Assembly (NCBI GenBank): GCA_965218695.1
Contig: OZ244651.1
Coordinates: forward strand, 2,272,001-2,336,000
From: Nitrosopumilus sp.
GTDB taxonomy: Archaea; Thermoproteota; Nitrososphaeria; Nitrososphaerales; Nitrosopumilaceae
Length of the DNA: 64,000 bases
Direction: 5' to 3'
In this document: positions 1,191 to 62,220 of the stretch, in pieces
Layout of the letters: each line of letters begins with the position of its first letter
Position numbering within the stretch: position 1 is the first letter of the stretch
The notes under the pieces: model-generated
What the model was told of the DNA's origin: nothing
The model's input: only the letters and a program-made list of their open reading frames with translations
Database searches by the model: none
Program-made: the position numbers and the translations under genes

Positions 1191-3338
1191 ATGGTACAAA
1201 AAACAATGATGGCTCGGAGTCTGTATGTGATACCCTTTCTGATCCTGTTTGGGGCCGTAGCGTATGCCCAGACCGGGGAGGCACCTGCAGACGATGCCTC
1301 ACAGTCGCCCTTGATGGTGGATACGGACATGTCCGAGTATATCCATGGCGACACAATCATAATGTCTGCCCATACGTCGGTGCCCATTCCAGACGAGTTC
1401 CTGTCGTACTACGTCAGTGATCCCAACGGTCAGGTGATCCACAGGGAAACGATAGGTGGTTCTGGCGGCAATTTTGACAACCGCATATTTCTCACCGGCA
1501 ATCTTGTATACGGGACCTATGTGATCACGGCCGACTACGGCGACCAGCACGCCTCTGCAACCTTTGAGGTGACAGGCCCCGTGGTTCCCGACGTCATCCA
1601 GGTGGCAGCCTCACTGACTGTTGACTCAGACGTGGACGTTTACGTGACAGGAGACACCATGCTATTTAGCGGGGTAGTCGAGGACATCGATTCCTACAGC
1701 GCCAGCACCCCGGTAAGGATCACCATATCCTACGACGCTGCTGCGTCTGCCGGCATCAGCAGGCAGACTGGCAGCACATCCGATTATATCGTTACGTCCT
1801 TCCCTGACGGCACGGGCAGTTTTTCAGCACAGGTCAAGGCAGTCTCAAACCTCTTTGGTACAGGAAACTATGTTGTCACTGCCACATATATTGACGGCAC
1901 TGCCACAGACGCGTTCCAGGTTGTAGAACCCCTGGATCTGGACAATGCTGCAATTACTACTGACAGAGACGTGTACGGGTATGGACAGGCAGTACACCTG
2001 AACGGCACGATTCCACCAAGCGCAGTCACCTCGCTTGACATCACGCTGACGCGCCCTGACGGGACAGTCGAGGAGCATCAGGCAGACATCAGCGACCAGA
2101 GATTCTCATGGTCATGGACCGTTCCAATCACCCAGCCCGCAGGCGGCTCTGACCCCCTGGGCATTCTTGGCTTTTACACCATAGGCATCTCCGCGGAGGA
2201 CACCGACAGGGAGATCATCTTCAAGGTATCAGAAGATCCCGAAAACGACTCACTCACAGAGATTCCAATCCTTGTCCGCACCGACAAACCCGTGTATCTG
2301 GTGGAGGAGACGTTCAGCGTAACCGGAAATGTGATCGTGGGCGACCAGGGAGACGCACTTGCGCCGGACAGGGTCACAATACAGGTAAATGACGGGGTGT
2401 TCTCGTTCAGGCACATCTATGAGGCACAGGTATATCCTGATCAGGGCGGCAAGTTCTCAAGCGTCTTTGACATACCGATAACGGTGTTTGAGGAAGGCAC
2501 GTACTTTGTAAGGGCAATTTATGGGGATTCGCGGGCAGAGACCTCGTTTGATGTAGTCAGCGAGATTGACCTTGATGCCGGGGAACACGTCTCGGTGTTT
2601 GCATCCCCGGACAAATCCAGGTACAATCCCGGAGATGCCATCGTAATCACTGGGGGCACGAACAAGCCTGCGGACATAACAGAGTTTGATGTGAGCATAA
2701 TTCAGATATCAGGGACCACGTGCGAGCCCGATGTCTGCCAGACGGCATCTGCAGCTCCGGGCGAATCCGGACTGTTCACACACACGTTCGTCATTCCGGA
2801 CACCGAATCGGCCATAGGAAAGTACGCAGTTGTCGTGGATGCCGGGGTTGACACAGTATCGACCCAGTTCCAGATAGTCGGGGAGACGCCTGACCCCAGG
2901 GTAATATTTGAAAAGGGCCACAGGATACCCGAAAGAATGATTACCGTCACCACAGGAGAGAGGACGGTAGACGGCACCGCATTTGAGCCCAGGGTTGTCT
3001 TTGGCTCGGTGGTCACTGCAACCGGAAGCAGCACGTCTGATGTAAACCTCAGGGTTCTAAGCGATGCGGGAACGTGCATCATAGGCACGGCAGACGACTG
3101 TCTTGTGTCCGAGTCCACCCGAAGGCCAGGGCAGATATATGACACTGTGGATGTCGACGGGATGATGCTCAACGTGCGGTACAGCGGTCCGGACGTGCAG
3201 GTGGAAAAGTTTACGATTCTGCCTGAATCCGACGATGCCTCCCTGCCGGATGCCGGCTGGAATGTCGAGGTGGTAAAGGCCGACGAACAGGTCTCGCGGT
3301 TCTACTACAAGGTCACGTACAGGACGGCGGCACAGTAA
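1191..3338 (+). CDS. Secreted/surface protein with repeated Ig-like beta-sandwich domains
   Basis: Signal-peptide-like N-terminus (SLYVIPFLILFGAVAYA); recurring TDxxxYxxGxT motifs; start re-estimated downstream of the ORF-track start. Confidence 0.7.
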   Translation: MVQKTMMARSLYVIPFLILFGAVAYAQTGEAPADDASQSPLMVDTDMSEYIHGDTIIMSAHTSVPIPDEFLSYYVSDPNGQVIHRETIGGSGGNFDNRIFLTGNLVYGTYVITADYGDQHASATFEVTGPVVPDVIQVAASLTVDSDVDVYVTGDTMLFSGVVEDIDSYSASTPVRITISYDAAASAGISRQTGSTSDYIVTSFPDGTGSFSAQVKAVSNLFGTGNYVVTATYIDGTATDAFQVVEPLDLDNAAITTDRDVYGYGQAVHLNGTIPPSAVTSLDITLTRPDGTVEEHQADISDQRFSWSWTVPITQPAGGSDPLGILGFYTIGISAEDTDREIIFKVSEDPENDSLTEIPILVRTDKPVYLVEETFSVTGNVIVGDQGDALAPDRVTIQVNDGVFSFRHIYEAQVYPDQGGKFSSVFDIPITVFEEGTYFVRAIYGDSRAETSFDVVSEIDLDAGEHVSVFASPDKSRYNPGDAIVITGGTNKPADITEFDVSIIQISGTTCEPDVCQTASAAPGESGLFTHTFVIPDTESAIGKYAVVVDAGVDTVSTQFQIVGETPDPRVIFEKGHRIPERMITVTTGERTVDGTAFEPRVVFGSVVTATGSSTSDVNLRVLSDAGTCIIGTADDCLVSESTRRPGQIYDTVDVDGMMLNVRYSGPDVQVEKFTILPESDDASLPDAGWNVEVVKADEQVSRFYYKVTYRTAAQ

Positions 3339-11799: not shown

Positions 11800-12931
11800 C
11801 GTTGTACAAAAAGTAGTTCCTCCCCTAGCCAATGGAGCCGGCGTGTTTGGAAGCAAGATCAGCCTGGTGTTGAGTGGAAGCAGGGGTGTGTGGGCAAGAA
11901 CGATGTACTCCAATCGGTGGCGGCATATGGGAACCCGGAGAGTACGCATCATGAAAAAGCTGGACGAATCGAAGGTAAGGTGGATACTTTCGGAGAAGGA
12001 CAAGGGATCCACCAATTCATGCATCTCCAAGGCCATGGGTGTGTCGCCGCGGTGGATAAGGAGGCTGTATTCCAGGTACAGGGGACAGGAACGCAGCAGC
12101 GTGGCATATCCGATGCACACGGGCAGGCCCGCATGCGGCCTTCCCGGCCGGAAGGAACACTCCGCGGTACTGTGCGCCAAGGGCAATGACCATGTTGGGG
12201 CCGTACGCCTGCACGGGTGCATAAGGGACGTCACCGGAATAAATATTCCATACAACCGCATACACATGGTATTGCGTGACGAGGATCTGGCTGCCAGACA
12301 GCCCAACAAGAGCAAGCGCCGCAAGTGGATCCGCTTTGAGCGCACCTACTCCAACTCGATGTGGCACACCGACTACAAGCTGCTTGACGACGGCAGGTGG
12401 TTCCTGTGTTACGAGGACGACGCCTCGCGGTTCGTGACTGCGTACGGCACGTTTGAGCGCGCAACGGCAGAAAACGCCCTGTCGGTATTGGACGAGGCGA
12501 TAAGAAACCACGGCAAGCCTGCATCCATAATGACTGACCGCGGATCCCAGTTCTACGCCACCGCATCAGAGGCAAAGAAAAAGGGTGCATCCGAGTTCGA
12601 AAAGAGGCTGGCAGAGCTTGGCATCAAGCAGATTCTGGCAGGCGTGAGGCACCCGCAGACCAACGGCAAGCTGGAGAGGCTGCACGGGGAGATCCAGCGG
12701 AAGCTGCCCGAATTTGAGGCGATAATGATGCGCAAGAGCGACCCGGTGGACCTCTTCATGCAGTGGTACAATTACGACAGACCGCACATGTCACTTGGCC
12801 TAGACGGGGAGGAGACGCCAGCCCAGGCGTTTGTGCGCAAGATGCCACCCAAAGGAGAGATAGTAATAGACGAGCAGACAGGGGAGGAGTATCATGTGGA
12901 GTAAGGGAGGAACTACTTTTCGTATTCCACA
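11800..12931 (+). mobile_element. IS481-family element (type A)
   Basis: TIRs share AAAAGTAGTTCCTCCC; right end ...CCACA; flanking direct repeat AGCACCCAAAGCC (13 of 15 bp). Confidence 0.88.
11951..12904 (+). CDS. IS481-family DDE transposase
   Basis: N-terminal HTH, WHTDYK, DDASR, TDRGSQF, HPQTNGKLER, YNYDRPH. Confidence 0.93.
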   Translation: MKKLDESKVRWILSEKDKGSTNSCISKAMGVSPRWIRRLYSRYRGQERSSVAYPMHTGRPACGLPGRKEHSAVLCAKGNDHVGAVRLHGCIRDVTGINIPYNRIHMVLRDEDLAARQPNKSKRRKWIRFERTYSNSMWHTDYKLLDDGRWFLCYEDDASRFVTAYGTFERATAENALSVLDEAIRNHGKPASIMTDRGSQFYATASEAKKKGASEFEKRLAELGIKQILAGVRHPQTNGKLERLHGEIQRKLPEFEAIMMRKSDPVDLFMQWYNYDRPHMSLGLDGEETPAQAFVRKMPPKGEIVIDEQTGEEYHVE

Positions 12932-28610: not shown

Positions 28611-31600
28611 TCAGTTGGCAGCGCTGACGGTGTAGGACTGGTCGGAGCCTGAGGGGATGAGGCTGGACAGCGAGTTGTTTGCAGAGTCCGTGATGTCGTT
28701 GTCTTGAGTTACGTCAAGATTGTACGTGCCTTCCTGGGAAGAGTCTACCGTGACATAATACTGGCTGCCGGAGCCTGTCACGGACGTGATGGGGTCGACG
28801 CCCTCGCCTAACGCAAGGGACCAGCTGTTCAGGGTGCCCTCATCAGCGTCATAGTTATCATGGATTCGCAGCTGCCAGTCGCCGTTGATCGAGACGCTTC
28901 CAAAGTCGGGAGCGTATGTCGCGACGATGTCGCGTGACGAGCCGCCGGTGCGGTTGTGGAGCGTCTCGGTCGTGCCGTCAGGCGCGACGAGATCCACCTT
29001 GAGATCGCCTATGTAGGCGTGTGTGATGTTTACAGACACTGACACCGATGCGGCAATGGCAGAGTCAGAGACGGCGATCGTGTCTGCCTTGCTAACGTTA
29101 AATGGTACAAAGAGGGACGGCGAACTGGAATACGTAAACGTCTGGGAGTCCGTACCAGGGCTGCCCGGGGACAGCTCAAAGTCATCAGTGCCCACGCCGG
29201 TCACGGTCTCGCTGAAGGCCACCTTGAACTGGAGCGTGTCACCGTCAGTATCCTCCGCGGCAGGATCGTACCTCGTGATGGAGGCGACAGTAGGTGCCAA
29301 GTCTGCGACGGTGACTGTTCTGGTTACTTGGGTGGCAGGATTGCCGGCGTCGTCTGTGCACGTAAAGGTCACCTCGTATGTCTGGGCAACGTTGGTGTTC
29401 ACGTCGTTGGACACGGCGATCCGAGACGAGATGTCGCCGTCGGTGTCGTCTTCACACGTTGCACCATCGTCAACGTACGTTGTGCCCACGCCCACGCTTA
29501 CTGCAGACTGGCCCACAAGTGTGATTACCGGCGGTGTGTCGTCGACTGGGGCCGTAACGGTGTAGGGTTGGTCGGAGCCTGAGGGGATGAGGCTGGACAG
29601 CGAGGTGTTTGCAGAGTCCGTGATGTCGTTGTCTTGAGTTACGTCAAGATTGTACGTGCCTTCCTGGGAAGAGTCTACCGTGACATAATACTGGCTGCCG
29701 GAGCCTGTCACGGACGTGATGGGGTCGACGCCCTCGCCTAACGCAAGGGACCAGCTGTTCAGGGTGCCCTCATCAGCGTCATAGTTATCATGGATTCGCA
29801 GCTGCCAGTCGCCGTTGATCGAGACGCTTCCAAAGTCGGGAGTGTATGTCGCGACGATGTCGCGTGACGAGCCGCCGGTGCGGTTGTGGAGCGTCTTGGT
29901 CGTGCCGTCAGGCGCGATGAGATCCACCTTGAGATCGCCTATGTAGGCGTGTGTGATGTTTACAGACACTGACACCGATGCGGCAATGGCAGAGTCAGAG
30001 ACGGCGATCGTGTCTGCCTTGCTAACGTTAAATGGTACAAAGAGGGACGGCGCGCTGGAATACGTGAACGTATTGGAGACAGCGGCGCTTGGGCCGTCAG
30101 GGGACAGCTCAAAGTCATCAGTGCCCACGCCGGTCACGGTCTCGCTGAAGGCCACCTTGAACTGGAGCGTTTCGCTGTCAGTAACCTGCGTTGCAGGATC
30201 GTACCTCGTGATGTGGGTAATGGTAGGCACTGTTTCAGAAGATGGATTGACCTTGATGCTGGCGGAAATAGATGGCTTTACGTCAAGTCCAATCGTGCGT
30301 ATATTTGCAGTGTCGGCAGTTATTGTTATGTCATATCTGGATTTAGTAGAATAGTCAGAGACGGAATTGAGGACAAGCCGTCCGTCCGTGATTGTAAAGT
30401 AGCTAGCGTCTGTACCTGTAATGTTGTAATTGTCAATACCTGTATCAAACCCTACCAGTGTTGATATGTCAGCGACTGATGTTTGGCCGTTATCAACTGA
30501 CGTATCTTCCAGAACAATAAACCACGATCCCAGATTCCCATCGAATTCGATGGCATTGTAGAACATTTCAAACATATTATGATAGTGGATTACAGAAGAG
30601 ACGTCCCAGTTGGACAGGTCGCCGTTGAAGGAGCTGGCGTAAGAGAACATGCCGTACATGTCTTTCGCGGAGGAGACGTCCCAGTTGGACAGGTCGCTGT
30701 TGAAAGAAGTAGCAAGTAGGAAAGTTTGAGTCATATATTGCACAGAAGAGACGTTCCAGTTGGACAGGTCGCCGTTGAAGGAGTTGGCGTTAACGAACAT
30801 GTAGGTCATGTCCGTTACTTTGGATACGTCCCAGTTGGACAGGTTGCCGTTGAAGGAGTCGGCGTCAACGAACATGTAGATCATGTCCGTTACTTTGGAT
30901 ACGTCCCAGTTGGACAGGTTGCCGTTGAAGGAGCTGGCGCTAGCGAACATGTAACGCAGGTTGGTCATTTGAGAGACGTCCCAGTTGGACAGGTCGCCGT
31001 TGAAGGAGGAATTCCTGAACATGTAGGTCACGCGCGGGTTGGAGGATAGATTAGGGGCATCATCTGCCTCATATTGCATGTTTACTGTACCGCTGAACAT
31101 GTATGACATATCAGACCATGCGGTGTCTCCCCACTGATCTAGGGATATGAGCAATTCAGGGGAATCTTCGGTCCATCTAGGATTATTATAGTGAAAATAG
31201 AAACGTTCCAAGTCGCCTGAGATTGCAACAGTAGTGGTTATTGGCGAAGAGGGCTGCTGGGTGTATAGATAATATGTAGACACCGGTCCGCTTTTGGTGA
31301 CGTTCTGGACGGCACTGCCATCCCCCCAGTCTATTGACACCTGGCCTCCGGATGCCACGTCAATGTGGAATCTTATAGACGCGTAACTGTGCTGGGGCTG
31401 ATCTGTAGGTGCTCCAGTAATATTCCACGTGGTGACAAAAGAAGAAGTGTCAGATACTTGAGCATACGCCTGTGGCAGTAGCATCGAATACACCTTCGCA
31501 TCTGCCAGGCCAGGCCAGTTATAGAACGGGGGATGTGGCAGCTGGTTCGTCTCTGCCTGCGAGGCCTCATCGTAAGGTCCTGCCAGCAGTCCAAACATCA

Positions 31601-42594: not shown

Positions 42595-43623
42595 TTATCC
42601 GGTAATGATTATCTTCATGGCGCGATCCCCGCTGCGGGCATGATCAAATGCCTGCTGTGAATCGGAGATCCCGTACGTATGGGTGATCAACCCCCCGACA
42701 TCAATCTGTGAGGATTCGATCATCTGAAGTGCCTCTGCCGTGTCTCTGTCCGAAGCTGCATAACTTGTAACCAGCGCAATCTCCCGGGAGTAGATTCTGC
42801 CCATGTCCAGGCTTATCGTGGCGCCCTTTGATGGGACGCCAAACATCATGACGGTGCCGCCACGTCTTGTCACGCATATTGCATCCTCAAGGGCTGCAAG
42901 GCTGCTTGTTGCAACCACTGCAACATCCACGCCCTCCCCACCGGTACCGTCCATGATTATCTTCTGCCTGTCTTTGTAGGTGGCATTTATCGCCCCGGTG
43001 ACTCCGAATTTTTTTGCAAAGTCCAGTCGGAAGTCATTTACGTCAAGGCAGAATGTCCTTGAGAACTCCTTTGCCCGGGCAAGCAGCAGGTGCATCATTC
43101 CGGTTGGCCCTGCCCCAAAGACTGCAATCGAATCACCCTTCTGATAGCTGCACTTTCTCCAGGCCCGGATGCAGCATGCAAGGGGCTCAATCATCGCAGC
43201 GTCCTCAAAGCTCGTAGAATCAGACAGTTTCAGTACGCCCCCGTGCAGTACGTTCCATGCAGGCACCACGTACTCCTCGGACAGGCCGCACGGGGAGAGG
43301 TTTGTCTCGTAGTATCGGGGGCACATCGTCTCGCTTCCGTGACGGCACAGATGGCAGTCATAGCACGGCACGTGGTGGTGCGTAAACACCCGATCCCCCA
43401 CCTCAAACCCTTTTACATCAGAGCCCATCTGAGATATCACGCCGGCAGGCTCGTGGCCCAGCCGCGTTGACGGCTGCCCGTACTGCCCGTAGACCTTTTC
43501 CAGGTCGGATCCGCATATTCCACACGCGTGCATCCGGACCAGTATGTCGCCTGGACCGGGAACGGATCCCTGGACGTCATCGACAGACACCACGGACGGC
43601 TCCCTGACAGACACGCTCTTCAT
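42595..43623 (-). CDS. Zn-dependent alcohol dehydrogenase (MDR family)
   Basis: CGICGSD, GHE, CxxCxxC...C, GAGPTG. Confidence 0.92.
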   Translation of the reverse strand: MKSVSVREPSVVSVDDVQGSVPGPGDILVRMHACGICGSDLEKVYGQYGQPSTRLGHEPAGVISQMGSDVKGFEVGDRVFTHHHVPCYDCHLCRHGSETMCPRYYETNLSPCGLSEEYVVPAWNVLHGGVLKLSDSTSFEDAAMIEPLACCIRAWRKCSYQKGDSIAVFGAGPTGMMHLLLARAKEFSRTFCLDVNDFRLDFAKKFGVTGAINATYKDRQKIIMDGTGGEGVDVAVVATSSLAALEDAICVTRRGGTVMMFGVPSKGATISLDMGRIYSREIALVTSYAASDRDTAEALQMIESSQIDVGGLITHTYGISDSQQAFDHARSGDRAMKIIITG

Positions 43624-43656
43624 CGCCGGATGTTACAGGGGATGATTATAAGTAGA

Positions 43657-45015
43657 TTATAGGGAATTATATACAAAAGTAGGCCAGCCGCCGATTGATG
43701 GCGGCAGCCTACACATGTTTCTTTCTGAAGGCAGTGAAACCCTTTGATTGGCTCTCTCATTCACGGCGATTTCCCGCATACATGCGCGGGGCGCCGCGTG
43801 TTTCTTCCTCCTAACGACGACCTTCCCGGCCGCCTCCGCACAACGTGCGGCTATGTTGACAGACGCATTCTTGTCTGCGTGGTCTTCATGCCCACACTTT
43901 ACGCAGACAAACACCGACTGCGAGCGCCTGGAATTCCTGTCCGTGTTGTGGCATTCGGCGCACGTGATGCTGGTGTTGTGCGGCCTTACCCTGCAGAATT
44001 CCTTGTTGTGTTTTTCTGAAAACCATTCAATGTACGATAATACCTCGCCTATCGCGGCGTGCTTTATGACGCGGTTCAACCCGGTCTTGCCCCGGCCTTT
44101 CCTGGCCATCTGTTTTGGGTGGAGATCCTCGACTGCCATGGTTTTGGCGCCTGTAAGTTCATTCTTGACGCTCTTTTTCATGAAATCAGTCCGGCGGTTC
44201 CTGATCTTTTCGACGGCTTTTGCAATCCGTCTCCGCTCCTTCTTCCACGAATTGCCGCCTTTTTTGCGCCCGGACTGCGCGGACTTTCTCTTGTCTATGT
44301 CGTCTTTCTTGTACCGTCTGGCATTTTCAGGCAGCGTGGCAAGCACGGTGGTGTTTTTGTCCAGGTTGTGGATTGCCATCATGTTGACTGCGCCGACGTC
44401 GATCCCGACGAGGTTGCCATCGCGGCGTTCGGGTTTGGCCACATGCACCTGGACGTGCAGCTCGTACGTGCGGTCACATGGCTTGGTATCTTTGGTGATT
44501 TTTTTGGTGGTTTCTATTATTTGGAAAGATTTGATTTGGTCGCGTTCTATCGGGGTGCTTTTGGGCACGATGTTGCAGATGCCGCCGATATTCCAGGAGC
44601 CGTCTGCGCGGCCTGCCGGATGCCCGTAGCACCCGATTGCCGGCAGTCGACGTTTGGCATTATTGCTCTTCTTCCTGAACAGGCTGTCCGGGGACGTGTA
44701 TTTGCGCTTGTGTTTTGGCATCCGGCGCTTGGCGGCGTTGGATTCCAGGAATAGTTTGACTGCCTTTCGGCCGCAATCCATGGCATGTCTGTGAACATTC
44801 ACGTTGGCATCCAGCCAGCCGTGTTCTGCCCGCTTCTTTGTGAGTGTGCTGTACAGGCCGAACCTTCCCGGATTGTCCTCCAGCACCTGCCTGACGCCCT
44901 CGTTGTAACACCAGTCTGCCTGCGGCCGCGTCTCCCAAATCAGGCGGGAAATCTCCCGTGACTGGTAAAATGGAATCGTGAATGTCTGCGTCGTGTATGG
45001 GAGGTTTTGTTTCAT
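43657..45015 (-). CDS. tnpB: TnpB RNA-guided endonuclease
   Basis: RuvC-I GIDVG, RuvC-II AVEDL, Zn finger CAEC...CVKC, RuvC-III HADKNASVNI all intact; ORF reads through the element end. Confidence 0.92.
   Translation of the reverse strand: MKQNLPYTTQTFTIPFYQSREISRLIWETRPQADWCYNEGVRQVLEDNPGRFGLYSTLTKKRAEHGWLDANVNVHRHAMDCGRKAVKLFLESNAAKRRMPKHKRKYTSPDSLFRKKSNNAKRRLPAIGCYGHPAGRADGSWNIGGICNIVPKSTPIERDQIKSFQIIETTKKITKDTKPCDRTYELHVQVHVAKPERRDGNLVGIDVGAVNMMAIHNLDKNTTVLATLPENARRYKKDDIDKRKSAQSGRKKGGNSWKKERRRIAKAVEKIRNRRTDFMKKSVKNELTGAKTMAVEDLHPKQMARKGRGKTGLNRVIKHAAIGEVLSYIEWFSEKHNKEFCRVRPHNTSITCAECHNTDRNSRRSQSVFVCVKCGHEDHADKNASVNIAARCAEAAGKVVVRRKKHAAPRACMREIAVNERANQRVSLPSERNMCRLPPSIGGWPTFVYNSL
43683..43850 (-). 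ncRNA. Putative omega/reRNA scaffold overlapping the tnpB 3' end
   Basis: Position inferred from known TnpB biology; terminal hairpin visible; 5' boundary approximate. Confidence 0.5.
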
Positions 45016-45058
45016 CAGGTATGGTATTGTACGGTACCGTGCGTTAAAAGGGTATCAG
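43683..45058 (-). mobile_element. tnpB-only element (IS200/605 or IS607 derivative) inside the left TIR of the IS5
   Basis: Removing it restores the TIR; AG/CT dinucleotide at both junctions; right-end hairpin GCCGCC-ATCAATC-GGCGGC; no tnpA. Confidence 0.82.
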
Positions 45059-45258
45059 ATGTCTTAGTTAGTTGCACAACTATGTCCAGATACGAGGCAG
45101 TTCGGCAGCAGTCACGTTCGGAATCATCCGGACTGTCTGCCGGATGCTCCAAGGATCGCCATTACACGTACCGTGCTGCCTGGCATCTCTTGGATCAATT
45201 GTGATCAGCTAAAAGATCAATTGTATTTGTTCTATATGCACAAAGATCAGTACATGCT

Positions 45259-46323
45259 GTGCGTGTGATAATGGGCAAGATGGATGCTGCAAAACCCGCC
45301 AAGCAGAAATCACGGCTACACATCACGCATGCGCAAAACGACGCAAGGTATGTGGACCGTGGAATGACGCTGTACCTCTGCGCTGATCCGGACTGGATCA
45401 ACGAGGTTGCGAGGATGAACCACAAGAAGAACGGCCGTCCGTTCGAATATGCCGAGGGCCTGTTTGAGCTGCTGGCAGGAATAAAAGCAGCATGCGGAAT
45501 TTCCTATCGCGCATGCGAGGGACTGGCAATAAAGGCACTGGAACGCGGCAACGCGCCTGACTACACCACGATATACAGGAGAATCAACGCCCTCAAAGTG
45601 GAGGATGACGGCAGCATGGTCATGGTCCACGGCAGGAAGGGGGCCCTGTGCCTGATTCCAGACGGCACCGGACTGTCGCCTACCAAGCGCAGCGAGTGGA
45701 TACGCAAAACGCACAAGGTAAAGCACGGCTTTATCAGGCTGGGAATAATGATAGACCAGGACACGCGCGAGATTCTGGCATTTAGCATTACAGACGAGCA
45801 CACCGGAGACTCTCCGCAGTTTGAGGGACTGCTTGAGGGTTCCCTGGAGAAGATTGGCATCGGAGGCACGGAATCGGAAGGGCAGGATGCGGCGGCCAGG
45901 AATCCGGACATAACGGTAAAGGCAGACGGCGGATACGACTCCCGCAAGATCTTTTCGTACTGCAAAAAGCGCGGCGTAGAGCCCCTCATACGGATACGCG
46001 GCAACTCCAACACGCGTTCGAACGGCGTGGACAGGTCCCGCACCAACGCCGTGCTGGATCAGCTTGGAGGCGGCATCACCGACCCCAAAAAGTTCGCGGC
46101 CCTGAACACGGGGAAGCGCGAGGAGAACAGGGAACAATGGAAGATTCGCGTAGGCTTTGGCAAGCGGTGGAATGTGGAGATTGTATTCTCGGCATTCAAG
46201 AGGATATTTGGTGATGCTGTTTGGGCTGCAAAGTGGAAGAACATAAAACAGGAAATCCGGATCAAGATTTGGCTGTACAACCGCATGCTGCGCGCATCAC
46301 AGGAGGCAATCGCAAGGACGTGA
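45259..46323 (+). CDS. IS5-family DDE transposase
   Basis: PDYTTIYRR, PDGTG, KADGGYD, RWNVEIVFSAFKR. Confidence 0.9.
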   Translation: MRVIMGKMDAAKPAKQKSRLHITHAQNDARYVDRGMTLYLCADPDWINEVARMNHKKNGRPFEYAEGLFELLAGIKAACGISYRACEGLAIKALERGNAPDYTTIYRRINALKVEDDGSMVMVHGRKGALCLIPDGTGLSPTKRSEWIRKTHKVKHGFIRLGIMIDQDTREILAFSITDEHTGDSPQFEGLLEGSLEKIGIGGTESEGQDAAARNPDITVKADGGYDSRKIFSYCKKRGVEPLIRIRGNSNTRSNGVDRSRTNAVLDQLGGGITDPKKFAALNTGKREENREQWKIRVGFGKRWNVEIVFSAFKRIFGDAVWAAKWKNIKQEIRIKIWLYNRMLRASQEAIART

Positions 46324-46793
46324 GGCAAGGATACGTCTTGGGCCATACTGTCTTGATCATGAAGGTGGAACTGTAGGGAGGTTGTGCAACTCCCATGTGT
46401 TACGGGTATCCAAACCCGTTGATGTCATGTGTTGGCAATGCGTCTGATCCAGTCCGATTTGGGTTGGTCGGGCTGTTTTTTAAAGATTTGTGGGCAGGTT
46501 CGACGTAAATCGGATATTTTGATCATTATTGCCCCCGATCCTGCAGAATCCGATGCAAATGTCATGGCTCGTGTGCAGGTACAGGCAGGCGTTGCGCGCG
46601 GATTTGGATGAATGGCACACAGCTACCGCTAGGAATCTCTCCGTATCCGGAGGAAAAGCAGGCCAAACTCCTACAGTCAATATCGTTTTCGGCAAGCCGG
46701 AGGGGGACAAGAGGGGGCGTTGAGCCGCCCCTCATCTGTGCAGGGGCGGCAAAACACACCCGGGGTTGTTTAATCTCCCCATGGCGCCCAGAC

Positions 46794-47861
46794 TCAGGAT
46801 TCGGCGATGCGCTTTATTCTCTGGAATTTTCGTCTGACAAAATCCCTGTCCTGGGTCCTGTACTCGGCGTCGTGTTCAAGCATCTCCCAGACCCATTCGA
46901 GCATCTGCCTGGCCACGGCAACCCTTGCCTTCATGGGCCCTATGCGGGCTGCCAGTCTCTGGTAGCGTGCCCCTATCCGGGCATCGTGCCGGACTGCGAC
47001 GAAGGCGGCCTCGACCATGGCGCGGCGCAGCCAGACAGAACCGCGCTTTGTGATGCCACCGGTCCTGACTGTCTCCCCGCTGTTGCGGTGTTTTGGCGCC
47101 AGGCCTGCATACGAGACCAGCTTTTCGGCGTTGGCGAACCTCTTGTGGTCGACTATTTCGGCAAGTATGGTTACTGCCGTGACGTATCCTATTCCGGGTA
47201 TGGTCATGATCAGTCGTGCCCGCCTGTCGCTCATCGCAATCCCGGCTATCTTTTTTTCAAATTTTGACACCTGCTTTAGTATGGTGTCGATGATGGCTAG
47301 GTGCGACTGCACCGCCATGCAGTCAACCTCCCTCAGGGGCACGTCCTGCAGCCACTCGATGCCCTGCTCCGTAAACAGCCCCCCTTTGGGCTGCTCGTGC
47401 GGGTATTTGGCCAGGATCGCGTGGATGCGGTTCTTGGGGCCTGAGGCGGACATCTTCATGCCCAGGCGGGTGCGGGTCAGTTCGCGCAGATCCCGCGCGG
47501 GCTTGTCGGCCACGAACGATTCGGGGATCATGTCCAGCCTGCACAGGTCTGCCAGCTTTTCCGAGTCGGCCTTGTCGTTTTTGTACACGGTTTCGGTTAT
47601 TATCTTCGTGTTGTGCGGGTGGGCCAGCAGGGTGTCGATGCCCGCATCCTCGAGCATGTCGTGCACGACTATCCAGTAGTTGGCCGTGGATTCGCAGACG
47701 GCCGTGGCCGGCACGTACCCTTCCTTGTGGATCATCTTGATGAATCCGGTTATTCCCCGAACGTTGTTGTCAAATTCAGTCTGCTTTAGTATGTCCTTGG
47801 TACTTCCCTTGATCGTTGTAACGCATTTCTTTTTGTGAACGTCTATTCCAACGTAATACGT
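46794..47861 (-). CDS. IS110-family DEDD (bridge) recombinase
   Basis: YVGIDVH, VCESTA, KNDKAD and RNSG catalytic Ser; SD-like GGAGGTGA followed by ACG; the ORF-track start (47945) lies inside IS481. Confidence 0.9.
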   Translation of the reverse strand, partial: TYYVGIDVHKKKCVTTIKGSTKDILKQTEFDNNVRGITGFIKMIHKEGYVPATAVCESTANYWIVVHDMLEDAGIDTLLAHPHNTKIITETVYKNDKADSEKLADLCRLDMIPESFVADKPARDLRELTRTRLGMKMSASGPKNRIHAILAKYPHEQPKGGLFTEQGIEWLQDVPLREVDCMAVQSHLAIIDTILKQVSKFEKKIAGIAMSDRRARLIMTIPGIGYVTAVTILAEIVDHKRFANAEKLVSYAGLAPKHRNSGETVRTGGITKRGSVWLRRAMVEAAFVAVRHDARIGARYQRLAARIGPMKARVAVARQMLEWVWEMLEHDAEYRTQDRDFVRRKFQRIKRIAES

Positions 47862-47882
47862 GTTATCACCTCCTTTGCAGTG

Positions 47883-49314
47883 TGTATAGTCCCGAAAGTT
47901 GTTCACCCCCCACATGAGGCTCCGGCCCGGGGTGGACATGCCCAATGAAGGACATTATCCGCGGCATGGCATCGCGTGCAAGATTACTGGGAAATGCAGT
48001 CAGCCTGTCCCTTACCAGAAACGACGGTGTGTGGGTTTCCCGTCGGTGGAGACGCTCGGCCGTGTGGCGTCATATAGGAAGACGGAGAGTGCGAGTGATG
48101 AAAAAGCTTGACCAGTCCAAAGTCGAATGGATCATACAAGAAAAGCGCAAGAATTCCCGCAACAAAGAGATTGCAGCAAGCATGGGAGTGTCGGTCCGCT
48201 GGGTCCAAAAGCTGTGGAAGAGGTACAGGGACAAGGATCGGATCGCGTATCCTGCTCCCATGGGCAGGCCCAAAAAGTGCGCGCCCGGGAGGCGGGATCA
48301 TTCGGCGGTTTTATCGGCTGCGTCCACTGCAGTCCACGGGGCAGCGTCCCTGGAGCGCATCATAAAGTCGCTTACAGGAATACATATCCCACACAACGTC
48401 CTGCACAGGATATTGAAGGATGCCGATTTTGCAGACACCCAGCCAAGGAAGAGCCAGCGCCGCAAGTGGATCCGCTACGAGCGCGAGCACTCCAACTCGA
48501 TGTGGCACACAGACTACAAACAGCTTGACGACGGCAGGTGGTTCCTGTGCTATGAAGACGACGCCTCGCGCTTCGTGACCGGATTTGGGGTATTTGAGGA
48601 GGCGACAACCGAAAACGCCCTGAAGGTGCTCGACGAGGCCATAAAAAATTACGGCAAGCCCGCATCGATCCTGACTGACCGCGGCGCCCAGTTCTATGCC
48701 ACGGAATCCGAGGTCAAGAAGAAGGGAGCCTCCAGGTTCGAGCAGAGGCTAGTCGAGCTTGGAATCAGGCACATACTGGCGCGCGTGCGGCACCCCCAAA
48801 CCAACGGCAAGCTGGAGCGCCTGCACGGGGAGATGCAGCGCAAGCTGCGCCGGTTCGAGGCGGCATCTTCTGCCAAGACCAGGCGCGGCGCCTCAGGGGA
48901 TTCCCACGTTGGAGGGCCGTTTTGCACCGCGCCAGCAAAGGATCCCGTGGAGCGGTTCATGGAGTGGTACAACCACGACCGGCCGCACATGTCCCTTGAC
49001 TGGGACAACCTCGAGACCCCGGCGCAGGCATTCGAAAGAAAGATGCCCCCTGCAGGAGAGATGGTAGTGGACGGCCAGACCGGTGAGGAATACCGCGCAG
49101 AATAGCTGTCCGGCACGACGTCACAACCGCGCCCCATCCTGGGGGATGTTGCGCACAATTTTTTGAAAGTCGCCATGCGTGGAGTGGAAATGACAAAAAT
49201 TCATGATTCCGGACGCAGGATCCAACACAAGACAATTATGCAACAGCCGGCAACATCAAACATGGAAGTACCTCCAAGTCTTGGAGGGGGGCGAACTACT
49301 TTCGGGATCCCACA
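47883..49314 (+). mobile_element. IS481-family element type B, copy 1 (1432 bp)
   Basis: TGT...ACA ends with imperfect TIRs; perfect 15-bp TSD ACCTCCTTTGCAGTG. Confidence 0.95.
48098..49105 (+). CDS. IS481-family transposase
   Basis: WHTDYK, TDRGAQF, HPQTNGKLER. Confidence 0.93.
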   Translation: MKKLDQSKVEWIIQEKRKNSRNKEIAASMGVSVRWVQKLWKRYRDKDRIAYPAPMGRPKKCAPGRRDHSAVLSAASTAVHGAASLERIIKSLTGIHIPHNVLHRILKDADFADTQPRKSQRRKWIRYEREHSNSMWHTDYKQLDDGRWFLCYEDDASRFVTGFGVFEEATTENALKVLDEAIKNYGKPASILTDRGAQFYATESEVKKKGASRFEQRLVELGIRHILARVRHPQTNGKLERLHGEMQRKLRRFEAASSAKTRRGASGDSHVGGPFCTAPAKDPVERFMEWYNHDRPHMSLDWDNLETPAQAFERKMPPAGEMVVDGQTGEEYRAE

Positions 49315-49330
49315 ACCTCCTTTGCAGTGT

Positions 49331-49455
49331 ATCGGACCCGACCAGCGGAAAACTCCCATTCACCGTCAAAGCGGTATTTGACCATCCGCATACCTTGAGT
49401 CACTCTAACTAACGCCCTCATACGTGGCAAGTTGCACTCGACTCTCAGGTCCAAC
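49331..49455 (-). ncRNA. Putative bridge RNA of the IS110 element
   Basis: 10-bp closing helix enclosing two stem/internal-loop/hairpin arms; loop sequences GTGCAACT, TTAGTTAG and ATGGGAG match the element junctions. Confidence 0.8.
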
Positions 49456-49536
49456 AGGGTAAATGCCATGATCGCCGCTATAACGGCAACACATGGCGTC
49501 TAACTAAGATGTCTACTTTTGTATATAATTCCCAGA

Positions 49537-49830
49537 TTATACGCCAAGGATCTTCTTGAGCATGGCCCGATAGTCCACGTCGCTCTTTCCGCTTCCCGCA
49601 GCGGGCAGCGCAAAGACCAGGGCGGATTTTTCCGTACGGAGCTCGGTCAGCTCGTCGCTGATCTTTTCTGTAATGTCGTCGCTGACCAGTACCAGCGCGA
49701 CGTCCGGGTCGTCAGTAAGCCTCCTGATCTCCCCGAGGGCAGTATCGGGGGTTTTGGTGATTACCCCGGGCACTCCTGCCAGCTGAAAACTGGTTACAAA
49801 CGACTTGCTGCCCACTGTCAGAACCCTCAC
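49537..49830 (-). CDS. atpF: A/V-type ATP synthase subunit F
   Basis: MRVLTVGSKSFVTSFQLAGV...MLKKILGV. Confidence 0.88.
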   Translation of the reverse strand: MRVLTVGSKSFVTSFQLAGVPGVITKTPDTALGEIRRLTDDPDVALVLVSDDITEKISDELTELRTEKSALVFALPAAGSGKSDVDYRAMLKKILGV

Positions 49831-50358
49831 GACTCCCACTCCTGTGCGTTCTAATTTAACCCTTTTTGGACTCGCGCCGACCCCGAAGGCTGCCATGCGC
49901 CTTCTCGTCCAGCCACGCGCCGGATGGAATCGCACCTTCTTGCGCGCACAGACTTTGGGTTCCAAGCGCGGCGGCTGCCGCCGGATCCGGCCTGCGGCTT
50001 AGTGCCAAGATGCAGGCAGCACGCAAAGATTGGTTAGGCCCCGTAGGACTGCATGCATCCGACGGTGCCGGCGGCGATCCGTCCAAAACCGCAAGGATCT
50101 GCCCCGCTGCCAGAAAAACCACGAGGGCCTGAATGCCGAACGAATCCCAAGGAGGAAGGGAATGCGGCGGGCATTCCTGCCGCGTATGATGAATCAGGGC
50201 AGTTGCCTCACCCGCAACAAAGGGATCGAATCCCACTTGCGAATTTCACGAGTTTCCCCGTTTTCGCTTTTGAAGCCTGACGGCCGTGCGGCAACCGAGG
50301 TCTGCCCGTAGATATAGGGACGGGGTGACTAATAGGTTTTTCATTCGGGAGGATGCGA

Positions 50359-51790
50359 TGTATAGTCCCGAAAGTTGTTCACCCCCCACATGAGGCTCCG
50401 GCCCGGGGTGGACATGCCCAATGAAGGACATTATCCGCGGCATGGCATCGCGTGCAAGATTACTGGGAAATGCAGTCAGCCTGTCCCTTACCAGAAACGA
50501 CGGTGTGTGGGTTTCCCGTCGGTGGAGACGCTCGGCCGTGTGGCGTCATATAGGAAGACGGAGAGTGCGAGTGATGAAAAAGCTTGACCAGTCCAAAGTC
50601 GAATGGATCATACAAGAAAAGCGCAAGAATTCCCGCAACAAAGAGATTGCAGCAAGCATGGGAGTGTCGGTCCGCTGGGTCCAAAAGCTGTGGAAGAGGT
50701 ACAGGGACAAGGATCGGATCGCGTATCCTGCTCCCATGGGCAGGCCCAAAAAGTGCGCGCCCGGGAGGCGGGATCATTCGGCGGTTTTATCGGCTGCGTC
50801 CACTGCAGTCCACGGGGCAGCGTCCCTGGAGCGCATCATAAAGTCGCTTACAGGAATACATATCCCACACAACGTCCTGCACAGGATATTGAAGGATGCC
50901 GATTTTGCAGACACCCAGCCAAGGAAGAGCCAGCGCCGCAAGTGGATCCGCTACGAGCGCGAGCACTCCAACTCGATGTGGCACACAGACTACAAACAGC
51001 TTGACGACGGCAGGTGGTTCCTGTGCTATGAAGACGACGCCTCGCGCTTCGTGACCGGATTTGGGGTATTTGAGGAGGCGACAACCGAAAACGCCCTGAA
51101 GGTGCTCGACGAGGCCATAAAAAATTACGGCAAGCCCGCATCGATCCTGACTGACCGCGGCGCCCAGTTCTATGCCACGGAATCCGAGGTCAAGAAGAAG
51201 GGAGCCTCCAGGTTCGAGCAGAGGCTAGTCGAGCTTGGAATCAGGCACATACTGGCGCGCGTGCGGCACCCCCAAACCAACGGCAAGCTGGAGCGCCTGC
51301 ACGGGGAGATGCAGCGCAAGCTGCGCCGGTTCGAGGCGGCATCTTCTGCCAAGACCAGGCGCGGCGCCTCAGGGGATTCCCACGTTGGAGGGCCGTTTTG
51401 CACCGCGCCAGCAAAGGATCCCGTGGAGCGGTTCATGGAGTGGTACAACCACGACCGGCCGCACATGTCCCTTGACTGGGACAACCTCGAGACCCCGGCG
51501 CAGGCATTCGAAAGAAAGATGCCCCCTGCAGGAGAGATGGTAGTGGACGGCCAGACCGGTGAGGAATACCGCGCAGAATAGCTGTCCGGCACGACGTCAC
51601 AACCGCGCCCCATCCTGGGGGATGTTGCGCACAATTTTTTGAAAGTCGTCATGCGTGGAGTGGAAATGACAAAAATTCATGATTCCGGACGCAGGATCCA
51701 ACACAAGACAATTATGCAACAGCCGGCAACATCAAACATGGAAGTACCTCCAAGTCTTGGAGGGGGGCGAACTACTTTCGGGATCCCACA
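50359..51790 (+). mobile_element. IS481-family element type B, copy 2 (1432 bp)
   Basis: Same ends as copy 1; perfect 15-bp TSD TTCGGGAGGATGCGA. Confidence 0.95.
50574..51581 (+). CDS. IS481-family transposase
   Basis: Protein identical to copy 1. Confidence 0.93.
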   Translation: MKKLDQSKVEWIIQEKRKNSRNKEIAASMGVSVRWVQKLWKRYRDKDRIAYPAPMGRPKKCAPGRRDHSAVLSAASTAVHGAASLERIIKSLTGIHIPHNVLHRILKDADFADTQPRKSQRRKWIRYEREHSNSMWHTDYKQLDDGRWFLCYEDDASRFVTGFGVFEEATTENALKVLDEAIKNYGKPASILTDRGAQFYATESEVKKKGASRFEQRLVELGIRHILARVRHPQTNGKLERLHGEMQRKLRRFEAASSAKTRRGASGDSHVGGPFCTAPAKDPVERFMEWYNHDRPHMSLDWDNLETPAQAFERKMPPAGEMVVDGQTGEEYRAE

Positions 51791-51816
51791 TTCGGGAGGA
51801 TGCGAGTCTGGATCCA

Positions 51817-51888
51817 GCACCGCGTGGACACGGCACCGCGTGGACACGGCACCGCGTGGACACGGCACCGCGTGGACACGACACCGCG
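51817..51888. repeat. 16-bp tandem repeat GCACCGCGTGGACACG x4.5
   Basis: Directly visible; no spacers. Confidence 0.92.
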
Positions 51889-60788: not shown

Positions 60789-62220
60789 TGTGGGATCCCG
60801 AAAGTAGTTCGCCCCCCTCCAAGACTTGGAGGTACTTCCATGTTTGATGTTGCCGGCTGTTGCATAATTGTCTTGTGTTGGATCCTGCGTCCGGAATCAT
60901 GAATTTTTGTCATTTCCACTCCACGCATGGCGACTTTCAAAAAATTGTGCGCAACATCCCCCAGGATGGGGCGCGGTTGTGACGTCGTGCCGGACAGCTA
61001 TTCTGCGCGGTATTCCTCACCGGTCTGGCCGTCCACTACCATCTCTCCTGCAGGGGGCATCTTTCTTTCGAATGCCTGCGCCGGGGTCTCGAGGTTGTCC
61101 CAGTCAAGGGACATGTGCGGCCGGTCGTGGTTGTACCACTCCATGAACCGCTCCACGGGATCCTTTGCTGGCGCGGTGCAAAACGGCCCTCCAACGTGGG
61201 AATCCCCTGAGGCGCCGCGCCTGGTCTTGGCAGAAGATGCCGCCTCGAACCGGCGCAGCTTGCGCTGCATCTCCCCGTGCAGGCGCTCCAGCTTGCCGTT
61301 GGTTTGGGGGTGCCGCACGCGCGCCAGTATGTGCCTGATTCCAAGCTCGACTAGCCTCTGCTCGAACCTGGAGGCTCCCTTCTTCTTGACCTCGGATTCC
61401 GTGGCATAGAACTGGGCGCCGCGGTCAGTCAGGATCGATGCGGGCTTGCCGTAATTTTTTATGGCCTCGTCGAGCACCTTCAGGGCGTTTTCGGTTGTCG
61501 CCTCCTCAAATACCCCAAATCCGGTCACGAAGCGCGAGGCGTCGTCTTCATAGCACAGGAACCACCTGCCGTCGTCAAGCTGTTTGTAGTCTGTGTGCCA
61601 CATCGAGTTGGAGTGCTCGCGCTCGTAGCGGATCCACTTGCGGCGCTGGCTCTTCCTTGGCTGGGTGTCTGCAAAATCGGCATCCTTCAATATCCTGTGC
61701 AGGACGTTGTGTGGGATATGTATTCCTGTAAGCGACTTTATGATGCGCTCCAGGGACGCTGCCCCGTGGACTGCAGTGGACGCAGCCGATAAAACCGCCG
61801 AATGATCCCGCCTCCCGGGCGCGCACTTTTTGGGCCTGCCCATGGGAGCAGGATACGCGATCCGATCCTTGTCCCTGTACCTCTTCCACAGCTTTTGGAC
61901 CCAGCGGACCGACACTCCCATGCTTGCTGCAATCTCTTTGTTGCGGGAATTCTTGCGCTTTTCTTGTATGATCCATTCGACTTTGGACTGGTCAAGCTTT
62001 TTCATCACTCGCACTCTCCGTCTTCCTATATGACGCCACACGGCCGAGCGTCTCCACCGACGGGAAACCCACACACCGTCGTTTCTGGTAAGGGACAGGC
62101 TGACTGCATTTCCCAGTAATCTTGCACGCGATGCCATGCCGCGGATAATGTCCTTCATTGGGCATGTCCACCCCGGGCCGGAGCCTCATGTGGGGGGTGA
62201 ACAACTTTCGGGACTATACA
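60789..62220 (-). mobile_element. IS481-family element type B, copy 3 (1432 bp)
   Basis: Same ends, inverted; perfect 15-bp TSD CTGGACTAGATGGCA. Confidence 0.95.
60998..62005 (-). CDS. IS481-family transposase
   Basis: Protein identical to copies 1 and 2. Confidence 0.93.
   Translation of the reverse strand: MKKLDQSKVEWIIQEKRKNSRNKEIAASMGVSVRWVQKLWKRYRDKDRIAYPAPMGRPKKCAPGRRDHSAVLSAASTAVHGAASLERIIKSLTGIHIPHNVLHRILKDADFADTQPRKSQRRKWIRYEREHSNSMWHTDYKQLDDGRWFLCYEDDASRFVTGFGVFEEATTENALKVLDEAIKNYGKPASILTDRGAQFYATESEVKKKGASRFEQRLVELGIRHILARVRHPQTNGKLERLHGEMQRKLRRFEAASSAKTRRGASGDSHVGGPFCTAPAKDPVERFMEWYNHDRPHMSLDWDNLETPAQAFERKMPPAGEMVVDGQTGEEYRAE

Follow-up and report, generated by a model that had tools for sequence, protein, structure and literature searches.

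A Russian-doll nest of four insertion sequences in a Nitrosopumilus genome, with a tnpB carrier outermost and an IS110-family element predicted to be aimed at an IS5 terminal repeat

Insertion sequences (ISs) that settle in the ends of other transposons are exemplified by IS4321 and IS5075, members of the IS110/IS1111 group that insert in the 38-bp terminal inverted repeats (TIRs) of Tn21-type transposons. In IS110 and IS1111 elements, the target is specified by an RNA through what is known as the IS621-type bridge RNA or seekRNA mechanism. For tnpB, the picture is divided: IS605-type tnpB and ISC elements are described without TIRs and target site duplications (TSDs) in those parts of PMC4810608, PMC3119063 and PMC13565253 drawn on here, and the main text of Altae-Tran et al. 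2023 (PMC10691335) associates six TnpB branches with DDE transposases and inverted terminal repeats (ITRs), including solo TnpBs within the same ends, such that a TnpB inside DDE-type ends is a kind of element already known. The sharing of ends between solo TnpBs and transposase-bearing elements implies mobilization in trans. Here we describe a locus at which an IS110-family element and a tnpB carrier are found in a single nest, located in a 64,000-nucleotide stretch of Nitrosopumilus sp. DNA (contig OZ244651.1, positions 2,272,001 to 2,336,000; hereafter the window) that belongs to a genome of 2.63 Mb in nine contigs (G000). The best-fitting rRNA models, archaeal SSU and LSU, agree with an archaeal chromosome. 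Family-wide searches covered 201 genomes of the same archaeal family.

Between an ADH gene and atpF, the window carries an insert of 5872 bp bracketed by two copies of the 8-bp sequence AGATTATA (left, 43654-43661; right, 49534-49541), and Pfam searches identify four open reading frames (ORFs) in it that encode TnpB, a DDE_Tnp_1 transposase, an IS110-type DEDD recombinase and an rve-type transposase. These coordinates, the 8-bp duplication and the four genes are as given in the initial annotation of this DNA, which had interpreted the locus as an IS5 element whose two TIRs had each been invaded by a different RNA-guided element. Four elements are indeed nested here, but IS5 is not the outermost host and its TIRs have not both been invaded. 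The locus is instead a set of four insertion sequences, each of a known kind, nested like Russian dolls, the outermost of which is a tnpB carrier, hereafter X, that uses borrowed transposon ends. We consider it highly probable that the nest is linear and runs, from outer to inner, from X through IS5 and IS110 to an IS481-like element. The further proposal that a tnpB element and an IS110 element were both programmed against the same transposon end also fails, as only the IS110 element is aimed at the IS5 repeat while the tnpB element hosts the nest.

In the order of events that we propose, a 1.42-kb non-autonomous X would have entered the gap between the ADH gene and atpF with duplication of the 8-bp AGATTATA, and an IS5 element with 16-bp TIRs would then have entered X 19-27 bp inside the end upstream of tnpB, duplicating part of the octamer AGATGTCT. 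An IS110 element would next have inserted 5-6 bp inside the right TIR of IS5, guided by an RNA transcribed from its non-coding left end, in which two loop segments would pair with both halves of the target TTAGTT-AG-TTGCAC, and finally an IS481-like element would have entered IS110 soon after the recombinase gene begins, duplicating 15 bp. The IS5 insertion would have parted tnpB from a TATA-like box in the TIR, IS110 would have disabled one end of IS5 and the IS481-like element would have disabled this copy of IS110. The starting point of this series is directly visible in relatives, whose contigs (runs X5 and X7) join position 43653 to 49534, skipping 5880 bases with eight letters that fit either side; over 662 letters, the X5 contig differs from the window at 49. 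This ADH-atpF junction with one AGATTATA is the empty site, and its presence in both runs bears out a check on the outer duplication that had been proposed in advance.

The placement of IS5 within X depends on where IS5 ends. The IS5-family element spans 45065-49506 on the forward strand and comprises roughly 1332 bp of its own DNA, including an intact ORF for a 354-aa transposase (45259-46323, forward strand; DDE_Tnp_1 and DDE_Tnp_1_5, with PF01609 and PF13737 domains), in agreement with the earlier description of this gene as intact. Its TIR is 16 bp long, with a left arm at 45065-45080 and a right arm at 46381-46391 plus 49502-49506 that is split by IS110. The left TIR is whole and unoccupied, and tnpB lies outside IS5 and not within that TIR. 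Directly bordering this short IS5 on both sides are identical octamers, AGATGTCT, at 45057-45064 and 49507-49514, a direct repeat made by the IS5 insertion whose duplicated length may be 4-8 bp depending on the placement of the tip, and which is also compatible with the 5 bp found in relatives. With its DDE_Tnp_1-type transposase, short TIRs and short TSD, the element has the features of the IS5 family, as judged from its domains and ends.

The initial annotation had assigned to IS5 a TIR of 43 bp. Deletion of 43683-45058 and 46392-49501 does yield, as it claimed, a 1386-bp sequence with terminal 43-mers that are 41/43 alike and whose outer 21 bp are intact, 43662-43682 being the exact reverse complement of 49513-49533. 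AGATGTCT, however, is near-palindromic and differs from its own reverse complement at two central bases only, so that treating this direct repeat as an inverted one accounts exactly for both mismatches in the 43-mer. On sequence comparison, the 43-bp TIR is a composite of 19-21 bp of X TIR, the 8-bp AGATGTCT and the 16-bp true TIR of IS5. In a scan of the window genome, neither the 43-mer nor its outer 31 bp turned up anywhere else, and the inner 15 bp recur there in other short-TIR elements. Two relics of IS5 were recovered by BLAST across this genome, a 181-bp right-end fragment (relic B, C1:443369-443549) and an internally deleted copy (relic D, C1:1713434-1714213), and none of their three ends reaches the limit of the supposed TIR, each stopping 27-31 bp before it at TAGTTGCACAAC or AGTTAGTTGCACAAC. 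Comparison of the IS5 DNA against the 201 genomes identified as nearest relatives two 1343-bp copies, 98.7% alike, in a genome of the same genus (G110), and their flanks, when compared, delimit a TIR of some 17 bp (TAGTTAGTCGCACAAC and one further base) with 5-bp TSDs, AAATG and TTCGA. The finding of stand-alone relatives with short TIRs, which had been named in advance as the observation that would overturn a 43-bp IS5 TIR, thus argues directly against it. Since relatives and relics of IS5 are all short-TIRed and since the outer 21 bp bound elements that carry tnpB alone, IS5 inserted into the tnpB element and not the reverse. This case also provides a warning for annotation, in that a near-palindromic target duplication between unrelated TIRs can mimic one long TIR. 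One G110 copy of IS5 ends 26 bp from a degenerate X-type tip, outside that element (L063; G110:C1:876000-891500, approximately 1759-3074), and two of the three full IS5 copies, the window's included, lie within about 27 bp of an X-type tip, which may reflect chance or a target preference.

X itself occupies 43662-49533 on the reverse strand and has two 21-bp TIRs, one on the 3' side of tnpB (43662-43682) and one on its 5' side (49513-49533), which are exact reverse complements of each other. When the nest and one octamer are removed, its own DNA (43662-45064 plus 49515-49533) amounts to 1422 bp, tnpB is its sole gene, and its size, tip and TSD are those of a wider family. Within the window genome, blastn found the tnpB cassette as a single copy with one further, weak match of 89 bp that leads to a second family member, element E (C1:1702012-1703466), also recovered by a scan for the outer 21 bp that allowed mismatches. 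Element E is 1455 bp long and free of IS5, with tnpB as its only gene, a 23-bp TIR and an 8-bp TSD (CTGCATGT / CTGCATGC, 7/8 match); its TnpB is 39% identical to that of the window, and in both elements the 3' end of tnpB abuts the TIR. G110 harbors four copies of a 1503-bp element with 26-bp TIRs whose TnpB is 67-68% identical to the window's, and their 8-bp TSDs match at 8/8 in three copies (TCATGTGG, TAATTATA and TAAGATAA) and at 7/8 in the fourth. The same design recurs in other genera, where elements of 1.4-2.0 kb with tnpB alone end in the tip GGGAATTAYATAC even when TnpB identity falls to about 30%.

To describe this family, we assembled 47 elements from nine genomes, consisting of 28 pairs of tips with at most two mismatches per tip (loci L031-L069), 18 of 19 further pairs taken by coordinates and the window element; the pair left aside, L101, has no TnpB match. 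The TSD is perfect (8/8) in 31 of these elements and matches at 7/8 or better in 40. The 13-nt TIR tip is highly enriched in five genomes (23+23, 17+19, 15+14, 13+11 and 7+9 occurrences), against 0-1 for a reversed control, and was detected in 37 of the 201 genomes, a count that includes single matches in the unpublished genomes G093, G077 and G092, on which nothing else depends. A C-variant of this 13-mer, GGGAATTACATAC, is present as exactly one copy in some 25 genomes of other genera that lack tnpB carriers, where it may mark a conserved site of the chromosome and not the end of a transposon. The family is not uniform in its nuclease: carriers in G006 (e.g. L039, L052 and L105-L109; 1.84-2.02 kb) are about 400 bp longer and have open frames of 548-733 aa in which the TnpB match falls in two blocks, a larger TnpB variant within the same ends. 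Two TIR-bounded elements hold a DDE_Tnp_1 ORF as well, which in L072 (G083:C1:1891181-1894031) splits tnpB in two and in L078 (G006:C1:870565-872715) accompanies only the C-terminal half of TnpB, and tnpB carriers seem to be frequent landing sites for other elements.

The ends of X point to the IS1595 family. Four wider TIR pairs of 2046-3869 bp, all four with perfect 8-bp TSDs, encode beside one TIR a protein of about 320 aa that matches DDE_Tnp_IS1595 (PF12762; E = 3e-35 to 3e-40), and three of these proteins also match the IS1595 zinc ribbon (PF12760). The TIR tip of X is identical to that of IS1595-transposase elements in the sister genomes G100 and G083, and X shares with the IS1595 family, whose transposase is an ISXO2-like DDE enzyme with a zinc ribbon, both TIRs and 8-bp TSDs, the latter being the usual length for its members according to the account in PMC8101967. 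It departs from that family in having no transposase of its own, in a genome that holds only fragments of one: G000 yields no PF12762 match, and sequence similarity reveals three IS1595-type remnants of 46-53 aa, one lying about 1.8-2.0 kb before the window (C1:2269989-2270180) and two at C1:747142-747279 and C1:452501-452641, which we presume, from their sequence, to be relics of the helper. Because X lacks a transposase and its genome carries fragments only, X is a non-autonomous relative of IS1595 and not IS1595 proper; it would have been moved in trans by an IS1595-type transposase and, given that only fragments persist in G000, is probably stranded there. No partner transposase with the X TIR was found in G000 or G110, the latter having one partial PF12762 match in a 376-aa frame with no X TIR nearby.

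Several other elements share these ends. L070, L071 and L073 (G083:C2:56448-59609) are autonomous IS1595-type elements with a DNA methylase as cargo, fused in L073 to an HNH nuclease, and L071 has an IS630-type transposase nested inside it. Gene-less miniatures with the same TIR tip and 8-bp TSDs occur in G083 (L076, 351 bp) and G065 (L077, 318 bp), alongside further short TIR pairs of 115-259 bp, and these resemble miniature inverted-repeat transposable elements derived from the IS1595-type family.

Compared with described tnpB elements, X resembles the IS1341 group of IS200/IS605 in its length of about 1.4 kb, in having tnpB as its sole gene and in encoding a nuclease with intact RuvC and zinc-finger motifs. 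Elements of that group lack TIRs and a TSD, have subterminal hairpins and rely on a Y1 TnpA that places them beside a 4-5-nt target. The 21-bp TIRs and 8-bp TSD of X place it outside that group; the TIRs of the X family measure 21-26 bp, and no Y1 transposase (TnpA, PF01797) was found in G000 or G110 by a search that was positive in six reference genomes. Like the DDE-associated TnpBs in the main text of PMC10691335, tnpB of X is situated inside ITRs, its 3' end lies within 250 bp of the element's end and its ends are common to transposase-bearing elements. The partner here, by contrast, is of IS1595 type, which that main text does not name (its supplements may hold it) and which is likewise missing from the TnpB-partner list of ISL2, IS630 and IS1031 given in a review (PMC13565253). 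A literature search by title or abstract returned no description of IS1595-type tnpB elements, and the supplements of PMC10691335, which were beyond that search, may contain them. Two observations weigh against our reading of X and its relatives: seven of the 47 elements have a TSD that matches at less than 7/8, and an element that holds both an IS1595 transposase and tnpB inside one TIR pair was not seen. We regard a tnpB-only family with IS1595-type ends and 8-bp duplications as the more interesting by-product of this analysis.

The third element of the nest, the IS110-family element, extends over 46392-49501 on the reverse strand (PF01548, E = 2e-18; PF02371, E = 2e-28), and its own DNA (46392-47882 plus 49330-49501) totals about 1663 bp. 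BLAST found three copies in the genome. Copy A is that of the window; copy B (C1:443550-445212) has the same length, is 99.8% identical to A and lacks the IS481-like insertion; copy C (C1:1720107-1721763) is about 86% identical and has a frameshifted recombinase gene. The recombinase frame of copy A (46794-47945, reverse strand) has had its first 15 or so codons cut off by the IS481-like element, whereas intact copy B encodes 372 aa from a start further upstream. In line with the CT dinucleotide noted at the outset, CT stands on both sides of copy A (46390-46391 and 49500-49501), and in each of the three copies CT both precedes the element and forms its end. The two IS5 right ends that hold copies A and B are occupied at an identical base, and the contrast between the IS110 copies (99.8% alike) and their flanks (only 94% alike) argues for separate insertions as opposed to duplication of one segment. 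Read in the orientation of the recombinase, their target is TTAGTT-AG-TTGCAC, located 5-6 bp inside the IS5 tip. A perfect 14-nt copy of the same target, identified by comparison with the guides described below, stands unoccupied in the left TIR of IS5 (45064-45077).

The non-coding left end of IS110 (49315-49501, reverse strand) is presumed to encode the bridge RNA, on the basis of a predicted fold (z = -2.56) with an internal loop that bears both putative guides. One loop segment, GUGCAACU (49430-49437, reverse strand), is the reverse complement of the core plus the right target half (AG + TTGCAC), and the other, UUAGUUAG (49405-49412, reverse strand), reads in the same sense as the left target half plus the core (TTAGTT + AG); in the predicted fold they occupy opposing strands of an internal loop that GAGUC/GACUC closes. 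For copies A and B, these segments match the target at 8/8 on both sides. The left ends of copies B and C, each about 190 nt, are near-identical, with their differences clustered, and two of the clusters are UUAGUUAG and GUGCAACU. Twelve of the 201 genomes contain homologues of this left end, which provided 26 distinct aligned loci, five of which (L115, L116, L126, L127 and L131) were set aside since an insertion makes their loop unalignable. When the left-side match was scored over seven positions (six flank bases and the first core base), the loop agreed with the left flank at 6/7 or better in 16 of the 21 remaining loci, compared to 1.22 loci on average, and never more than 6, over 5000 shuffles of loops against flanks. 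Among loci at which a right end was found, the right flank matches the other loop strand at 8/8 for copy B, at 7/8 for one locus and at 6/8 for four, three of which are copies of one element, and two more loci show six contiguous matches after a shift of one base. As judged from these matches, IS110 is aimed at the IS5 repeat by its own RNA.

Some of these loci do not conform. Five of the 21 scored loci match at less than 6/7, in addition to the five left out as unalignable; the left guide of copy C fits its flank (6/7) and its right guide does not (3/8); and a putative donor loop was matched on one side only, AUGGGAG corresponding to the right end plus core in a second domain, with no counterpart found for the left-end side. 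An offset of 7 bp would bring the right guide of copy C to 5/6, and we do not rely on it. Two solo IS110 left-end fragments without a recombinase are present at C1:747545-747698 and C1:754861-755006, of which only the first was usable; it adjoins the IS1595-type fragment at 747 kb. In relatives, runs X1 and X5 have loose ends at 46390 (window 46340-46391) where the IS110 lineage abuts other left flanks at high contig depth, which implies that it is multicopy there and has other targets.

The earlier suggestion that IS110 is targeted to the terminal repeat of IS5 is therefore upheld, in that two of three copies occupy the same base of IS5 ends and the guides match both target halves. Like IS4321 and IS5075, this is an IS110-family element found at one fixed position in the TIR of another transposon and found again in separate copies of that TIR. 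It is distinguished from them by its archaeal host and by its target, the 16-bp TIR of an IS5-family element; guide segments that covary with the targets are, moreover, readable in its own non-coding end. With IS621-type elements it shares a DEDD recombinase, the absence of TIRs, a CT core on both sides and, as predicted from sequence, a structured left-end non-coding RNA in which the strands of an internal loop would specify the left and right target halves. Unlike those elements, it has no sequence or Rfam match, and its donor-binding loop is only half recognized. It offers a clean natural archaeal example of an IS110 RNA programmed against the terminal repeat of another IS, backed by an empty-site control and by guide covariation across about twenty loci.

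The nuclease gene of X may have consequences for how X persists. Its open frame (43657-45015, reverse strand; 452 aa; PF07282 and PF01385) continues through the TIR into the TSD, and alignment to the best solved chain, 9yyg, an AI-designed RNA-guided nuclease, places a RuvC D-E-D triad and a zinc finger at GIDVG, AVEDL, HADKNAS and CxxC...CxxC, residues which we take to have the roles usual for these TnpB motifs. The ISDra2-type TnpB structures 8bf8 and 8exa match at E = 9.8e-10. Alignment of the 3' tails of 42 elements reveals a common purine-rich motif and a hairpin that has the inner TIR as its 3' arm, with changes between subfamilies that appear, by eye, to compensate for one another. By this alignment, the presumed omega-RNA scaffold would comprise the tnpB 3' end, the GC-rich hairpin and the TIR tip (43662-43830, reverse strand), limits that are themselves inferred.

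A signature in the flanks suggests what this RNA might recognize. We took a census of the 40 insertions with a TSD match of at least 7/8, oriented by tnpB, all 40 of which have different flanks. At position -1 before the TSD on the 5' side of tnpB, G is found in 31, A in seven, and C and T in one each; position -4 is a purine in 31 of the 40, and the first TSD base is T in 26. On the mirror side, 3' of tnpB, G is present in 11 of 40, which equals background (Fisher p = 1.4e-5 versus 31/40), and TnpB-less elements with the same TIR have G at 2 of 12 sides. Broken down by genome, G(-1) is seen in 9/9 insertions of G110, 9/11 of G100, 6/6 of G006 and 3/4 of G065. The window X fits this signature, with GGCG (49542-49545, reverse strand) just upstream of the TSD, directly before TATAATCT on the tnpB strand. 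In the empty site, the biased bases lie directly 5' of the TSD plus 3' flank, which is where a target-adjacent motif (TAM) would be expected were the guide transcribed from sequence past the 3' TIR. As a DDE transposase facing two identical TIRs should be blind to the orientation of the cargo, the asymmetry points to TnpB, and the flank sequences suggest that a TAM underlies it and that the guide derives from the TSD and the flank. Under this model, the TAM would be R-N-N-G immediately upstream of the TSD in the empty site, the guide would consist of the TSD and the adjoining flank outside the 3' TIR, the guide-matching DNA of the window would be the TSD plus 12 nt of flank toward the ADH gene (43642-43661, reverse strand), as predicted from the TAM-like asymmetry, and TnpB would cut empty alleles and so favor retention of the element. 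We consider this guide model about evenly balanced between right and wrong.

A broader proposal, which we put forward tentatively and with more doubt than confidence, is that in this archaeal family a whole clade of TnpBs left IS605-type elements for cut-and-paste IS1595-type ends with its omega-RNA running through the TIR, and that the 31/40 bias is a signature of survivorship: insertions whose empty allele TnpB could cut would have been kept and the others lost, the transposase being unable to choose an orientation. If true, this would constitute evidence from natural populations that RNA-guided "restorative homing" works for DDE transposons that make target duplications. The orientation-specific flank signature, a feature absent from those parts of PMC10691335 drawn on here, allows a direct test of what TnpB does in a DDE transposon of this kind. 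We dropped the notion that the 8-bp duplications arise from staggered cutting by TnpB itself, as the sites have no common guide-length sequence.

Several results tell against a guide of this kind. G(-1) shows no clear bias among the few insertions from G135 (1/3), G083 (1/2), G113 (1/2) and G043 (0/1), and element E, from the window's own genome, has A at -1. RNAalifold returned no consensus structure for the 42 diverse tails, and a permissive Rfam scan of 43000-50200 found no family for the predicted omega-RNA or the bridge RNA, its only hit being a chance miRNA match (E = 0.86). The small per-genome samples, together with the four genomes lacking clear bias, leave some room for the possibility that the G(-1) asymmetry has nothing to do with TnpB and arises from an asymmetric target preference of the transposase, from chance or from relatedness among sites. 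We judge this unlikely, given that TIRs identical over 21-26 bp should make both ends look alike to a DDE transposase, that the mirror side and the TnpB-less elements stay at 11/40 and 2/12, respectively, and that no two of the 40 sites share their flanks. More doubtful still is a model, the one assumed by the initial annotation, in which the omega-RNA guide is the TIR itself, some 17-21 nt past the last hairpin, and TnpB cuts X- or IS1595-type ends rather than empty sites. In many subfamilies the hairpin does end 13-21 nt before the tip, leaving a guide-sized single strand of TIR; such a guide, however, gives no reason for an orientation-specific G(-1) and purine(-4) beyond the TSD on the far side, the inner TIR preceding the would-be protospacer varies between subfamilies and thus supplies no constant TAM, and every element would cut itself and its kin.

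For the order of the nest, the evidence within the window leaves a genuine ambiguity, as the window alone fits a 43-bp TIR (41/43) equally well and the choice depends on other loci and genomes. One alternative dispenses with a nested IS5 altogether and treats the IS5-family transposase as that of X, making the outer element an autonomous DDE-plus-TnpB transposon. Two of the groups ISL2, IS630 and IS1031 are IS5-family groups. The naming of all three as TnpB partners in the review (PMC13565253) and the record of TnpB within ITRs alongside DDE transposases in the main text of PMC10691335 lend this idea plausibility, as does the presence of both genes inside one TIR pair, with L072 and L078 likewise having a DDE_Tnp_1 ORF beside pieces of tnpB. 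Against it, IS5 has its own perfect 16-bp TIR, unrelated to that of X, with direct repeat flanks inside X, and stands alone with its own TSDs in G110; all 47 family elements of 1.4-2.0 kb are without such a transposase; the X TIR tip goes with IS1595-type transposases; the DDE ORF of L072 splits tnpB and is thus also an insertion; and the genome contains no further copy of a unit of tnpB plus IS5 transposase, all of which renders an autonomous X very improbable. The original picture, in which an IS5 with 43-bp TIRs is outermost and tnpB and IS110 entered its left and right TIRs, both programmed against the same end, is hardly credible, for although the 43-mers agree at 41/43 after the two deletions, the 8-bp TSD surrounds the whole insert and the tnpB 3' end abuts the outer 21 bp, which IS605 rules would make the guide, neither the 43-mer nor its outer 31 bp recurs in the genome, IS5 relatives and relics are all short-TIRed, the outer 21 bp bound IS5-free tnpB-only elements in nine genomes as well as IS1595-type transposons, the two mismatches are exactly those expected from a AGATGTCT direct repeat misread as inverted, and a Y1 transposase that could insert an IS605-type cassette is lacking.

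The innermost element of the linear nest, at 47883-49314 on the forward strand, is 1432 bp long, has the ends TGT...ACA and encodes rve and rve_3 domains. It is flanked by a 15-bp duplication, ACCTCCTTTGCAGTG (47868-47882 and 49315-49329), that is present as a single copy in IS110 copy B; copy B hence supplies the uninterrupted site and corroborates the earlier placement of this element inside IS110. IS481 family members are delimited by a single rve-type DDE transposase, TG...CA ends and TSDs of up to about 15 bp. Our IS481-like label refers to the rve domains, the TGT...ACA ends and the 15-bp TSD, and the choice of IS481 among rve families is provisional. Since the recombinase frame, as taken from copy B, is interrupted after some 15 codons, copy A of IS110 is probably inactive on its own, with its left-end RNA region intact. 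The genome contains eight to nine near-identical copies of the IS481-like element, indicating recent activity, and three identical ones lie within 15 kb in the window (47883-49314, 50360-51791 and, inverted, 60789-62220). A divergent relative (approximately 75-78%) is located near 12197-12721, and a 16-nt tandem repeat in four copies (51809-51888) begins just past the second IS481 copy. Elsewhere in the window, we noted a tandem array of five copies with a 75-nt period (30592-31007) and a 300-nt direct repeat, 99% identical, whose copies are 930 bp apart (28627-28926 and 29557-29856).

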